From: Octopus vulgaris
Lineage: Eukaryota
Direction of reading: 5' to 3'
DNA length: 64,000 nucleotides
NCBI GenBank assembly: GCA_951406725.2
Contig: OX597831.1
Span: 11,656,001-11,720,000, forward strand
The first letter of the stretch is position 1. The number at the start of each line of letters is the position of its first letter. Positions 14,221 to 59,014 of this stretch are shown here, one piece after another. The notes below the pieces were generated by a model. The model ran no database searches and was not told where the DNA came from. It was given only the letters and a program-made list of their open reading frames with translations. Position numbers and translations under genes: made by a program.

Positions 14221-15465
14221 GACTGGATCACCATCCAGATGGAGCCACAGATGCCTCAATCTCAGCGCGTGCCTGCGCATCATCAGCCGAGGCATCCCCA
14301 GCCCACCCTTTAACGGTTGTTGGCAGCGAATAGAGCGTCCCACAAGCGTATTCGAACCCTTCCACAAGAAGCGGAAGAACTGTCTTTCCAGCTTGCTCAA
14401 CCACGAATCAGGGCAGGGAACGACGGTTAGGCGGTAGGTGATGACCGATGCGATGAACACATTGTCTACCTCCGCCCTTCCTGGCTCAATTTTCGCAGCA
14501 ATGGCTCAAGAGACATTACATACAAAAGCGGGGAGAGAGGACACCCTTGACGAAGCGAGCGTTTGAAGCTGAGCGGCTTAGATAAAAAACCGTTCATCCG
14601 AACTACCGAATCGATGTTGTTATAAATTTCAATGATCCACCTGAGGAAGCTAATACCCAGGCCGAACTGTGCCAGAACGGACACCAGGTAATGATGGTCT
14701 ACCCTTTCAAAAACCTTTGATTGGTCTAAATCGACCACTGTCCCTCCCTTGCAAGAATCATTATGAAACCCTTCCACAGTGTACTGTAGAAGATGGAGAT
14801 TATCCTGAATGGTTCTACCGGGAAACGGCACATACCTGTGCCTTCCCGATCAACTTATTCGGGTCCTTTCTGACAAGCCTCACCACCTCCCGGCGCACAG
14901 ATCTGGGAATGAACCCATTCTGCTGCCAGTTCGCGTAGACATTTGCCAGCAGGTGACCGAACAAGTCTGGCATACTCTTATACAGTTCATAGGGTAGACC
15001 ATCCAGTCCCGGTGCCTTACCCGCGTCGCAGTGCACCATACCCTCAATTACCTCCTCAGGCGTGATCGGCCCTACACAACACTCCGCGTCAAGCTCCGAG
15101 AGGCGCGGCAGCCCGGCGAGGAAATCCGTTAGGTCCCTCTTATTGACCGGTCCGCTTCCTCCACCCCGAAAAGCTAGGTGAAGTGCTCCTGAAAGACCTC
15201 ACGCATCTCTTCGGGTTCGTTTATTAACTTACCTCTTTGGTTCATCAAAGATCGAATTGTGCCATCGTTTACACGTTGGGCTTCCACCACTCAGGCCCAT
15301 CCTGTTGCCTTGATTCCTTCACAACCCAATGTACGAATCCTGGCTCCAACAATACAACCCATATGCTGGGCTTCGAGATGCTGGTTTAACGCCAGTCTCT
15401 TGGCCGTCACCTGAGCTGCAGAGCCAGATTCCATTGCTTCCTCCAAGTCTTTAGCTAACGCTAAT
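14221..15465 (-). mobile_element. L1/Tx1-clade LINE ORF2 (reverse transcriptase) relic with internal deletions
   Basis: KAPGLDGLPYELY; GRTIQDN; DLDQSKVFERVDH; RQGCPLSPLLY; FFRFLWKG...KGGLGMP; frameshifts and no YADD. Confidence 0.9.
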
Positions 15466-18125: not shown

Positions 18126-18304
18126 ATATCTAATAAGCTGACCTACCAACTTTTGTTAATCTAGATTGTAGGGGACAGTTGTAACAACATTTTGAACACA
18201 CCCTACTAAGCACTGACTAACATACGGAATGCAGTCGGGACCGCTTTGCGATAGTTTTGTGATAAACTGGGCAAAACTTGTGAAACGCTGCAGACTGCTA
18301 AACT

Positions 18305-18890
18305 CTTTTGCAGGCACAACAGGTTCAAGTATGATAGAGAGGAAGTGAGAGACAATGAGAGGTGTGCGAAGAAGAGGAGTGTCAGAACATCAGAGCTGAC
18401 TGAGAAAATTCGCAGTTTTCTTGATGAAGACCATCGCGTATTTATTATGGCAATGAGCATACAATTCGGAGTTGGTGCGGAAACTGTACGCAGAATTACT
18501 CATGAAGATCTGAATGTGCACAAGATTTGTGCAAGGTTTGTTCCCTGGGTACGCAGGGACGAGAATGTTCACGATCAACTACTTGACAATGATAGGCATC
18601 ATAATTTCCCCTTACCCCCCCCCCTACAACTCAGACCTTGTTCCCTGTGACATTTGGTTGTTCCTCAGACTGAAGGAGGACCTCAGAAGCAGTCGTTTGT
18701 AGGATGAAGGAGGCTGTGACAAGGGTCCTTCCCTTTCGAGAACTTCAAAAGGGTCCCCAGGAAATAGCTGGGCTTCTATATTGAAGTCAGAAGATCCTAT
18801 TTTCAAAAAGATTAAAGTTTTGTATTTCTTTGAAATTAATAAACGTCTCTCTTGAAAATGTCTGAAAACTTGTAGAATGAATCTTGCATG
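18305..18890 (+). mobile_element. Internally deleted mariner transposon relic
   Basis: VRRITHEDLNVHKICARFVPWV (WVPxxL-like) joined to PPYNSDLVPCDIWLFLRLKEDLR (YSPDLAPxD-like); the catalytic middle is missing. Confidence 0.85.
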
Positions 18891-18932
18891 TGTATACATA
18901 TGTATATGTATATGTGTGTGTTTGTGTGTATA

Positions 18933-20185
18933 CATGGTACGTAAGGTATTTGAATACATACCTTTTTGGGGTCATTGTTGCATTTTTTTGCCAACTCTGT
19001 ATAATCTTCGTTTCAGAAAATAATAATGGCAGACCCTCAGCTTACTCAAAAAATGAAGAGACATGCTGTTATTGTGGTTATAAAGGTTGAGCATAGCGAT
19101 TTAGAAATATCTCGATTTTTAAAAGTTGCCAGATCTTTCGTCTACAAAGTTTGTAAGGAGCTAAAGACTGAAGATAGAAATGTATCACCAATATCAAAGA
19201 ATAGAAAGCATTCTAAATGCTCTGAAATTATTATAACACCTGAATTTATCCAGCAAGTTCAACAGACCATTGATTGCAATCCCAGAAAGTCCATGAGGTC
19301 AATTGCAAAAGATCTCCATGTACCAGAAGGAACAGTCAGAAATGATGTCCACGAAGACATCAGATATAAGTCTTATATGATGAGTAAAGGTCAATTTGTC
19401 AGAAAAAGCAAAAGAAAATGACTACATCAAATCTAAAAGGCTCTTAAACAAACTGTAAAATCCAGCAGAAGATTTTATTTGGTTTTTCTCAAATGAAAAA
19501 TACTTCGACCAAAATCAAGAAGTTAACAAATGAAATGACAGATGGTTAGGTGTGAAGTTCCAAGTGTTATGTATTCAAAATTTCCCGCAACTGTCATGGT
19601 TTTAAGAATTGTCAGCGATGAAGGACATGTGATGCTTCTTTACTTTTTCCCACACGACTTTAGAGTTAACTAGAGTTAACACCTACATTGATGTCCTGGA
19701 AACAATTGTTAATCCCTGGATAGACAGTATATGCAATGGAAGGCCACATGTGTTTCAGTAAGACTCTGCACTATCACTCAAGGCTCTCGTAACACAGGAA
19801 TGGATGGCTGAAACTTTTAATTATCACATAACCCCTAACATTTGGACTCTTAATTCCCCAGAGCTTAATCCATTCGACTATTACATGTGGAGCGTTATTG
19901 AGAGGGAGCGGTCAATAAACATGCCCATAACACCAAAGATTCTTTGAAAGTTGCCACAGTCAGAGTAATGTTCAAATTGAACCAGGACCATTTGATTTGA
20001 GCGTGTAGATGATTTAGATCTCATTTAGAAGCAGTTGCTGATGAAAAAGGTGGCTTTATTGAATAACATTATAGAAAAGAAGGTTTATTTTTATCCACAT
20101 AGCATTTTTTGATAAAGTTATTATCTGTTATTATATATGTTTTTTTATAAACATAAATTTGTCCTCGAATATCCTACGCACCCTG
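18933..20185 (+). mobile_element. Near full-length decayed DD37D (maT-type) Tc1/mariner transposon
   Basis: TA-flanked imperfect TIRs CATGGTACGTAAGGTATTTGA / TCGAATATCCTACGCACCCTG; transposase from 19026; motifs FSNEKYF and FQ*DSA-x-NSPELNPFDY with 37 residues between the last two Asp; stops and frameshifts present. Confidence 0.9.
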
Positions 20186-26280: not shown

Positions 26281-26949
26281 ACAAGCACTTACAAATAACA
26301 TACGCAATTCAGACCACTTCTGATTTTACCACCGTCACCACCACTACTACTATTAATATTATTTCTACCATACACACATACATATATACATACATACGTA
26401 TATACATACATGCAAATATACGAGATATCTGCAGTTACTCTATCCAGATTACAAGTGCAGGTTTATACCTGTAATTATTGGGGCCCTGTGATGTGTTACA
26501 CACTGTTTAAATACCAATTTTGAAAAATTAAGTTTCTCAAAACCAGAAAGGAGGTAGCTGAATCGAAGACTACAAATCCAACCCATCACTGGAACTGTAA
26601 AAATCTGTAAAACTTTCCAGAAGTTTACCATTTAAATACATATGAGCATGTCTAGATATGAGAATACATACATGAAGCATACAAATTTCCACACACATAC
26701 ATACATACATACATGCATGCATGCATACATACATACATACATACATACATACATACATACACACATACATACATACATACATACATACATACATACATAC
26801 ATACATACATACATACATACATACATACATACATAAATACTTACATACATAAATACATACATACATACATAAATACATAATACATATGCTCATCATTATT
26901 TACATTATTTACATTTGACGGATATTTGTCCTCATCTTGTTTGTTGTTA

Positions 26950-26995
26950 AACACAACGTTTCGGCTGATATATCCTCCAGCCTTCATCTGGTGTC
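26950..26995 (-). ncRNA. Minimal hammerhead motif (core CAGAUGA, U4A)
   Basis: GACAC-CAGATGA-A-GGCTG-GAGGATATAT-CAGCC-GAAACGTT-GTGTT. Confidence 0.65.
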
Positions 26996-27300
26996 TTCGG
27001 GGAAATTCCGAACCTGGGTTCCATTCTTAAGGTATCTCTACATCTACACAGGAAAGTTAGATGGCTTGAAAGACGAGCTCGTTTTTGATGGAGTTTCTCT
27101 CTATATCTCCATTGAAGTCTGATGTCGCTTCTGTACCGATTAGATAATACAGTTCTATGTTTAAGAGAGGAGGAATTATGTACATTATTTGCATTATTTA
27201 CATTGGAGATGATATTGAAGAGATGAGGAATTATATATATTATTTTCATTATTTACCTTTGACCTTAGGAATGAGAACCCAGGTACGAAATTTCCCTAAG

Positions 27301-27345
27301 AAACCCGATGAAGGCTGGAGGGTGTATCGGCCGAAACGTTGTGTT
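27301..27345 (+). ncRNA. Minimal hammerhead motif (core CCGAUGA, U4C)
   Basis: AAAC-CCGATGA-A-GGCTG-GAGGGTGTAT-CGGCC-GAAACGTT-GTGTT. Confidence 0.65.
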
Positions 27346-28160
27346 AACAACAAATAAGATGAGGATAAATATCCGTCGAATGTAAATAATATAAATAATT
27401 CCTCATCTCTTAAATATAGAACTGTAATACGTTCATCACTTTATATTTTACTCTTCAAAATTTCATTTAAATTTCATACAATTTATCTTGTGTACCAATT
27501 CGCCATTGCATCTAAGTTCGTCTCCGCTTAAACTAGATGTCGGCAAAGTGGTTAGTATCGACCACTGGAGATCCATACGATTTCTAAAATTAAGGGTGCC
27601 GAATTATTAGCGAACGGGGTCTTGAAGAGCGTCGGTAATTTACGGCTAAAATTCACTAATTTCCTACATAATATACATGCAATATTAACTAAAATTCACC
27701 AAATAAATATTTCACATGTCAATATAAAATGGCTGAATTTTAATAGTTTTTTTTATCATCTTGGTAAAGTATTTAGATTAAATTTCTTTAAATATTTCTT
27801 TATTTTACAAACAAGCCGTAAAAATGTAGCGAGGGGCAGAATCGAGCGTACGTTGGACAAAAAAGCTTCCAACTTATTTCTCTTCCTACTTCCCATTCAT
27901 TTATGTTCAAAAATTCAAATGAGTTGTAAAAGAGTACTCAATACACATTGTAGAGTATATTTGTGCAAATCCTTCTTTAGCTAGTCGTGCTTTTATGCGT
28001 GGATGATTGTTCAGCTTTGACACGTCAATAATCCGGAAAAGGAATTGTTTTTATTGCCATTTCAGTTGCGTATACACCTCAGAAACGAAGATAAACTCCC
28101 GCAAATAAGCATCTTTTGATGGACTCTCTGTCTCTCTCTCTCTCTCTCTCTCACCATATA

Positions 28161-57560: not shown

Positions 57561-57990
57561 GGTGTGAGAGGATAGTTAAGTCATGGTTAGTTTCGATGTG
57601 ATATAAATAGAGTGAGGTGGAGGAAAGAAAATAGATGCAAGATATGTATGGGTATTGAATTTGTAAATCCGTTTTATAGGCATAATGGTATATATGCAAT
57701 ATTACAATATCCTATGAGTAAAGTCCAAAAGTCCAACAGAGTTTAATATGAGTCCTTGCAAATATAGAGTATCTAAGCAATGTAAGAATCCCTTATGAGT
57801 GAGGTCCAGCAGATTTTTAAAGTTGGTCATTCCCAGTAGGGAATTTATATACAGTGTTGCAGAGTCAAAGGTTTATATTTAAAATGACATTTAAAAATAT
57901 ATATATATACATGTATATATATATTAGATGTATATATATATATATACATGTATATATATATACATATATATACATGTATACATATATACA

Positions 57991-58064
<74 letters not shown>

Positions 58065-58227
58065 GTTATCGCCATACTAATATGGCATTCTTATAAAAAT
58101 AAGAAAAAAGCTGTCCGCTTATTAGCTCCATGAGGCCATCGCCTTAAGTTAGCTATTTGATACACAAACTGTATCCATATAACCTTCGAACAAGGGAGGT
58201 CAGTCGCTCCACACTACTTGACCGGCA

Positions 58228-58269
58228 GCTACAGACGCGTTTCGGAGTATTGCCCCTTTTCAATGCAGC
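58228..58269 (-). ncRNA. Hammerhead motif with a U3-A8 covariant core
   Basis: GCTGCA-TTGAAAA-GGGG-CAATA-CTCC-GAAAC-GC-GTC-TGTAGC; 6-bp stem I, palindromic ACGCGT stem III, GUC triplet. Confidence 0.7.
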
Positions 58270-58298
58270 GTAGCCAGCCAGTAGGTGTCGCTTCCGAC

Positions 58299-58340
58299 AA
58301 TCTCTGTTCGATGGTTTTATAAAACCATCGAACAGAGATT
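58299..58340. repeat. Perfect 42-bp palindrome
   Basis: AATCTCTGTTCGATGGTTTTA|TAAAACCATCGAACAGAGATT. Confidence 0.95.
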
Positions 58341-58367
58341 ATTTTCTCTCCCTGTTTATTTCTGAGT

Positions 58368-58406
58368 TCCTTTCTGTTGAAGAGCGTAGGCTCGAAACTT
58401 AAAGGA
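58368..58406 (+). ncRNA. Degenerate minimal hammerhead motif
   Basis: TCCTTT-CTGTTGA-A-GAGC-GTAG-GCTC-GAAAC-TT-AAAGGA; A6U substitution and an incomplete stem III. Confidence 0.55.
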
Positions 58407-58506
58407 CTTTCTCACTTCCCGAGTGTTAAACTTTTTGTCTTTTAAACACCCGTTTTCGTCTTTTGTTTTGTTTGTTTATTTGTAAATTCCAACAATACAT
58501 GTATAT

Positions 58507-58945
58507 TCATTCCAACGACGCCGTGAACGCTACATTATCTATATGATGTGGAAAATATTCCATCAGCACTGTCCGAATGATGTTGGCATCACCTTCAAAA
58601 TACATGCAAGACTTGAACTCCGTGCCATCCGTCCACAACAAAAATCTAAATCGCATCTCATAACAACAATACGGCACAATTATTTCACCTCAATTGGACC
58701 CGCTCTCTTCAATATTACACCAGGACACGTCAAAACAGAAACTGACCACACAAAATTCAAGAAGTCTTTAGACAAATTACTTCAAACAGTTCCGGACAAA
58801 CCACCCGCAAACAATAACTCTCTGCTCGAATGGGCCTTGATACCCAAATCCTGAATTGAAAGACTTCGCCAGGTGGTGCTATTAAGTTACACATGGGCTG
58901 GGCCAACACTGGCCAAAACCTTTCTAAGTTATTTAAAGTTATTCT

Positions 58946-58950
<5 letters not shown>
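58507..58950 (+). mobile_element. 3' end of a second CR1/L2-group LINE family
   Basis: RHNYFTSIGPALFNITP...KFKKSLDKLLQTVPDKP, followed by a structured 3' UTR and short (TAAGTTAT)-like tail repeats. Confidence 0.8.

Positions 58951-59014
<64 letters not shown>

Follow-up and report, generated by a model that had tools for sequence, protein, structure and literature searches.

How did two hammerhead ribozyme motifs come to face outward around a perfect palindrome within 180 bp of the Octopus vulgaris genome? The pair lies in a 64,000-nt stretch of contig OX597831.1 (hereafter the window), AT-rich animal DNA dense in microsatellites, and public contigs resolve its surroundings into three abundant repeats placed end to end between two TA microsatellites. 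A (TA)n-rich microsatellite (57897–58061), the likely insertion target, adjoins the 3′ end of family A (58062–58320, minus strand; 5′ end at 58320, 3′ end at 58062), a hammerhead-bearing, non-coding retroelement end. There follow a 20-nt mirror copy of A's 5′ end (58321–58340, plus strand), which lies outside the family's usual sequence; family B (58341–58493, plus strand, right edge approximate), a 5′-truncated repeat; the 5′-truncated 3′ end of a LINE (58495–58949, plus strand, left edge about 58490–58501), comprising a protein C-terminus plus 3′ UTR; and a (TA)31 microsatellite (58950–59011) at the LINE's 3′ end. The outward-facing ribozymes are likely a by-product of this repeat pile-up, without joint function, and the layout is assembled from known parts, i.e. 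5′-end palindromes and opposite-strand hammerhead pairs that are already published. Our main reading, that a ribozyme-cut A RNA was reverse transcribed by run-off, acquired a self-primed 20-nt mirror and was joined to an older, resident B, has in our estimate about an even chance (roughly 0.5) of holding as a whole.

Hammerhead positions below follow the usual numbering. The minus-strand motif (58228–58269; motif A), noted as a hammerhead in a preliminary description of this DNA, is intact. A scan with strict type I criteria matched it and nothing else in the window, and had no match in 60 of 60 block-wise dinucleotide shuffles. It has a helix I of 6 bp, a helix II of 4 bp and a helix III of 2 bp with the palindrome ACGCGU, and its conserved core is complete (UUGAAAA, a U3-A8 variant, then GAAA and the triplet GUC). 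The predicted cut falls between 58234 and 58233, about 170 nt from 58062, where A's 3′ end meets the (TA)n tract. Helices of 6, 4 and 1–2 bp with a palindromic loop have been termed canonical, and the U3-A8 core variant has been described for Penelope-like element (PLE) hammerheads (PMC4209133); motif A is canonical in helix sizes, unlike the minimal PLE hammerheads of the same source. In helix sizes and the weak, palindromic helix III it resembles the canonical metazoan type I hammerheads of non-LTR retrozymes (PMC7229834; bioRxiv 10.64898/2026.07.22.740005), from which its U3-A8 core sets it apart. Its loop 2 reads CAAUA vs. CAAAUA in the canonical metazoan/Schistosoma type, its internal loop 1 carries U...UAC as in UCCA:GUAC of the Schistosoma-type hammerhead (PMC2632901), and the residues of the loop 1–loop 2 contact match, by eye and in sequence only, those of the Schistosoma ribozyme (PMC2632901). 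Motif A is predicted to work as a dimer, since two copies fold at minimum energy into a double hammerhead of −25.9 kcal/mol, more stable by 6.1 than two monomers. The Rfam hammerhead models matched neither motif even at E 10, and over the 64 kb Rfam gave nothing at gathering score, with hairpin-type chance matches only at E 10; these models may not cover forms with a weak helix III and a U3-A8 core. An exact-pattern scan for motif A found nothing in viral contigs, and three matches in metagenome contigs were dismissed, being short, due to chance and devoid of hammerhead context.

The plus-strand motif (58368–58406; motif B) is present and, as first described, degenerate. It carries U for A6, an extra base between positions 9 and 10.1 and a G→U change at 16.2 that breaks the palindromic 15.2–16.2 pair in the window copy; it failed both the strict scan and one relaxed at position 6, and was found by a looser scan run without a shuffle control. 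Its core reads CUGUUGA in place of an intact CUGANGA, and the letter A is absent as the majority at 58377 among the 40 of 71 difference rows listed. The extra base and a G10.1–C11.1 pair link it to minimal PLE hammerheads, which cleave poorly in vitro, whereas its U at position 6 does not (PMC4209133). The majority of B copies also share the palindromic 15.2–16.2 with that type (PMC4209133), since a majority G at 58399 (83–91% of depth) restores it in other B copies. The earlier suspicion that this copy may be dead applies to the plus motif and not to the minus one. No exact-pattern match to motif B occurred in viral, metagenome or prokaryote contigs, and the B half has an unstable fold (z −1.09). 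As had been noted, the two motifs show no sequence relationship: 277 of 300 shuffles attained their best local score of 15. Dual hammerheads on opposite strands, 100–700 bp apart, have been noted in Schistosoma (PMC4209133); the present pair differs from these in that its two sequences are unrelated to each other. The loose scan also yielded another degenerate hammerhead-like motif at 48982 (plus strand). A same-family inverted pair of minimal-hammerhead repeats lies at 26895–27430 (cores at 26990 minus and 27305 plus, one mismatch per core; arms 88.6% identical over 140 nt), in the classic layout of an inverted pLTR.

Whether A and B belong together was judged from public contigs aligned to 58062–58945. 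The data comprise four of the 24 listed runs, under three organism labels, with 32 of 28,538 contig pieces, 24 of 1,236 loose ends, 40 of 71 difference rows and, among the joints listed (21 more exist), four with A at both ends. These contigs carry no strand and their depth figures are not copy numbers; summed contig depth was rejected as a copy number because the measure is defined as none. All parts of 58062–58945 are covered by thousands of contigs in three large runs, and family A is covered in all four runs; within the window itself neither A nor B has a second copy. Of the 40 listed difference rows, 33 belong to the LINE and seven to B (about 155 nt); A (259 nt) has none, and its sole listed variant is a minority one-base insertion at 58277. 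A is therefore likely a young copy. At the seven B positions the letter of the window accounts for only 1–21% of contig depth, and most B copies have about nine more bases after 58432, i.e. the window copy bears a deletion; B is therefore likely an older copy of a very abundant repeat unrelated to A. The age contrast, read as it is from 40 of the 71 difference rows, could soften, and B may have subfamilies nearer to the window copy than the majority is. A contig in the run labelled X6 (record 17; 58380–58510, depth 3.4, 10 differences and one gap in 132) apparently bears B's deletion as well and might represent the orthologous site under another organism label.

The two families also have different usual neighbours. 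One contig of run X8 (record 25) is identical to the window over 58076–58320 and has 36 other letters that by their coordinates lie beyond 58320, and the loose ends at 58320 (eight contigs in X4, 11 in X6) share one continuation, which differs from the palindrome's right arm. At 58359–58367 loose ends of 46–132 contigs a row, in the three large runs, lead into other sequence upstream of B, and no contig bridges A and B (58320–58341) among the 32 of 28,538 pieces listed. Co-occurrence of both motifs in other copies had been proposed as a check, and in the public contigs the halves continue differently. We thus hold with good confidence that A and B arrived separately, at different times. The preliminary description had offered a fold-back or template-switch junction of Penelope-type reverse transcription joining two families; the fold-back and the two families are borne out, and the single template switch gives way to families that most likely came at different times.

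A one-step mixed insertion, in which a Penelope-type reverse transcriptase dimer started from A RNA at one strand of the target and from B RNA at its complement, or else changed template, and so made a two-family inverted pLTR, would produce the classic head-to-head inverted pLTR geometry (PMC8557442), of which the window holds the same-family example at 26990/27305. The PAc enzyme, a predicted dimer, cleaves and extends both strands (PMC11167929), and B is well covered in run X8, which we guess to be RNA. Such an event is nevertheless unlikely: B has rare alleles at seven places (1–21% of depth) and lacks about 9 nt, where A has no listed majority difference, the diverged LINE adjoining B's 3′ end suggests that B has long been resident, and, as a weak indication, B's deletion appears to recur under another organism label in the X6 contig.

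The same contigs bear on the other option raised at the outset, the viroid-like one, in which a single ambisense unit would hold a ribozyme for each polarity. A TATAAAA present on both strands at the centre of the palindrome (58315–58324) might drive it. The layout itself and the rod-like A half speak for it. In the contigs listed, however, A and B continue elsewhere into different, unbridged sequence, the outcome that the preliminary description had named as refuting, and therefore do not form such a unit; they differ in divergence, the plus motif has two core defects, and the B half (z −1.09) does not extend the self-pairing over the whole stretch. Viral, metagenome and prokaryote contigs gave no genuine match to the patterns, and the TATA sequence was created by the fold-back. 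We regard this as the least likely reading of all and give it almost no weight.

Under separate arrival, the palindrome needs an origin of its own. It is perfect and spacerless over 42 bp (58299–58340), as first reported, and its left arm is the 5′ end of family A. It is the only complex palindrome longer than 18 bp in the 64 kb, other long ones being microsatellites, and its chance expectation is about 1e-7 per window (fold z −9.9). The right arm (58321–58340) matches the reverse complement of 58299–58318 at 20 of 20 positions, vs. 13 of 20 for the rod's own 3′ arm, and was on this ground rejected as a native part of the rod described below. We therefore consider the palindrome very probably a self-primed fold-back. 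Comparable structures of 18 and 38 bp at the pLTR 5′ ends of Pen2 and Pen3a in Adineta vaga have been ascribed to self-priming, and a rotifer PLE 5′ junction was joined by microhomology (PMC3846280); PLEs in general show inverted copies at the 5′ end and target (TA)n (PMC8557442). The present junction resembles these 5′ ends in its head-to-head geometry, microhomology without a target-site duplication (TSD), AT-rich target and candidate 30–40-nt tail (PMC3846280, PMC8557442), a TSD being unreadable in (TA)n. It differs from the PLE palindromes of PMC3846280 in that another family lies beyond the palindrome, its axis sits at a predicted hammerhead cut and no parent ORF was seen; that source moreover places such self-priming on an antisense template and not on cDNA. 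A scan for the pattern at the palindrome's edge gave no match in prokaryote genomes. As a side effect, the fold-back gives each hammerhead a TATAAAA about 50 nt upstream on its own strand, which, judged by sequence, could drive divergent transcription as a by-product.

What set the 5′ end of A, at which the mirror begins, is suggested by the other copies of the family. The 5′ part of A is predicted to fold into a 144-nt rod (58177–58320, minus strand), which extends helix I, carries the hammerhead at the tip and has its 5′ base at the copy's 5′ end. The fold scores −60.9 kcal/mol (z −6.24), a value that none of 200 shuffles reached, and over 42 nt the arms are 69% complementary. In other A copies, the 30 consensus letters beyond 58320 read as the 3′ half of a second hammerhead-like motif on the minus strand, with a helix II of four pairs (GTGG/CCAC) and a 7-nt loop, then C-GAAA, a helix III of three pairs with a 1-nt loop, A17 and the triplet GUA. 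This motif was read from loose ends of median length 12–14, within which neither a CUGANGA core nor a helix I was seen, and its 10.1–11.1 pair appears to be A–C, not G–C. By eye it resembles the hammerheads of the Hydra clade, including Hydra-1_Obim (PMC8557442, File S2), in the 3–4-pair helix III and 1-nt loop; both also have an extra base ahead of GAA and target (TA)n. Its predicted cut would leave a 5′ end 1 nt beyond 58320, at the rod base, and the window copy of A starts 1–2 nt inside that end.

Three A copies, the window's included, break within about 2 nt of this predicted cut. Among the four listed A-to-A joints, two do so (rough chance 0.002, post hoc and from few events). In X1 the joint breaks at the predicted end and continues into a filler that opens with 10 nt reverse-complementary to 58142–58151 (chance about 0.0006, post hoc), which suggests the same self-copying at another site. 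In X4 the joint breaks within about 2 nt upstream of the predicted end and runs head to tail into an A 3′ end 37 nt short of 58062. Given separate arrivals and a fold-back, we think it fairly probable that A's 5′ end was set by ribozyme cleavage. The same nesting and fold-back could also have followed a 5′ end set by the transcription start, the rod base or chance truncation, the upstream motif being incomplete or inactive. That motif is known from its 3′ half alone, the rod base coincides with the same position, the boundary count is three, minimal hammerheads cleave poorly in vitro (PMC4209133) and cleavage is dispensable in PAc, which inserted in vitro without it and gave no RNA reads with ends at the cut (PMC11167929). 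Such an origin would leave it to coincidence that GAAA...GUA predicts a site to which three breaks come as close as about 2 nt, and a reverse transcriptase, which travels 3′ to 5′, should stall where it enters the rod and not where it leaves; we rate it as possible but doubtful.

The X1 filler also bears on the idea that the palindrome is an assembly or library artefact, a fold-back chimera joining two repeats, as it is a comparable self-copied filler in another A copy at the same boundary. Perfect, spacerless arms and the lack of a bridging contig among the 32 of 28,538 pieces listed would fit a chimera; the mirror, however, ends after 20 nt and enters a different repeat, unlike the read-long fold-back that we would expect, and such palindromes are published for PLEs (PMC3846280). 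An artefact is in our view very unlikely.

In the main reading, a B copy would first have sat in a (TA)n array, and the LINE and, later, A would have inserted at its two edges. For A and the LINE alike, the 3′ end lies on (TA)n and the 5′ end faces B, as would be expected if both inserted there. The A template RNA would have been cut beforehand, in vivo, by the upstream hammerhead-like motif, giving a 5′ end 1 nt beyond 58320. Penelope-type reverse transcription would then have been primed at the (TA)n target and run off at the cut RNA end; the cDNA 3′ end would have folded back, which would take no more than a short run of untemplated A's or an AT overlap of 2 bases, and primed the copying of 20 nt, and the new end would have joined B via a microhomology of 1–3 nt.

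Family A is likely a Penelope-type pLTR or a retrozyme-like retroelement end. It shows traits of pLTR insertions (a 5′-end palindrome, partial tandems and a hammerhead near a 3′ end on (TA)n), the listed joints including two head-to-tail and one opposite-strand arrangement. Its 3′ part (58062–58175, minus strand) forms five small hairpins (z −3.45), so that both parts are highly self-paired (z −6.24 and −3.45); by likeness to PAc, these hairpins are candidate start sites for reverse transcription. The 3′ ends at 58062 and 58099, seen in one contig each, point to a candidate optional tail of 37 nt (58062–58098, minus strand) that contains small hairpins, this offset having the size of the optional 30–40-nt 'tail' of PLEs (PMC8557442, PMC11167929). 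A contains no long open reading frame, and no reverse transcriptase/GIY-YIG ORF linked to it was seen among the sequences available for the family. It resembles non-LTR retrozymes (PMC7229834; bioRxiv 10.64898/2026.07.22.740005) in its non-coding, highly self-paired RNA; unlike them, it has a second, different motif of the same polarity upstream and forms no tandem array of 150–450-bp hammerhead units in the window, where it is present once; two head-to-tail joints are listed from the contigs. In O. vulgaris, PLEs make up 6.83% of the genome, with 31 recently active families (PMC13282606). None of the family motifs matched in the supplement of that paper, and 10 short motifs (from A, B and the upstream motif) gave a single 12-mer match in the supplement of PMC8557442, in unrelated-looking GC-rich sequence.

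We tentatively propose, as a conjecture on which we would not insist, that A encodes no protein, depends on Penelope elements and has been active recently, and that one of its strands bears two dissimilar hammerheads in tandem. The upstream one would by its cut make the 5′ end of a locking, viroid-like rod and the downstream one would sit at the rod tip, genomic copies starting at the upstream cut and ending in self-primed hairpins. The significance of the locus is carried by family A, through the link of its 5′ ends to a predicted ribozyme cut. If the account is true, the junction is an in vivo record of a ribozyme-cleaved RNA used as insertion template, and inverted PLE junctions arise by fold-back at the run-off end; should the boundary hold genome-wide, it would mark in the genome that ribozyme-cut RNA had served as template, which for PLEs is an open question. 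The role of hammerheads in PLEs has been stated to be unclear (PMC8557442). With a young, abundant A that starts at a predicted cut, counts of 5′ ends in a single assembly could address that role, and would also test the self-priming model of PLE palindromes (PMC3846280). In the literature searched, outside which lay subscription papers, Repbase-type libraries and the supplements of PMC7229834 and the bioRxiv paper, we found no work that links PLE fold-back junctions to a hammerhead cut or names families A or B.

The LINE piece beyond B shares 44% identity over 119 aligned residues with the C-terminus of P0002, an AP-endonuclease/reverse transcriptase protein that carries PF00078, PF14529 and PF03372; the piece itself had no Pfam match. 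Reading 58495–58506 as a microsatellite residue was rejected because the segment lies in the LINE's reading frame. The same LINE family has another, very short 3′ end in (TA)n at 34166–34248, the translation of 4417–4746 (minus strand) resembles the C-terminus of a related LINE, and broken pieces of a LINE reverse transcriptase occupy 14110–15198 (minus strand; PF00078, E 6.8e-12 at 14466–14846). The frames of 18255–19421 (plus strand) resemble Tc1/mariner transposase N-termini, and gave only weak helix-turn-helix Pfam matches, below the cut-off.
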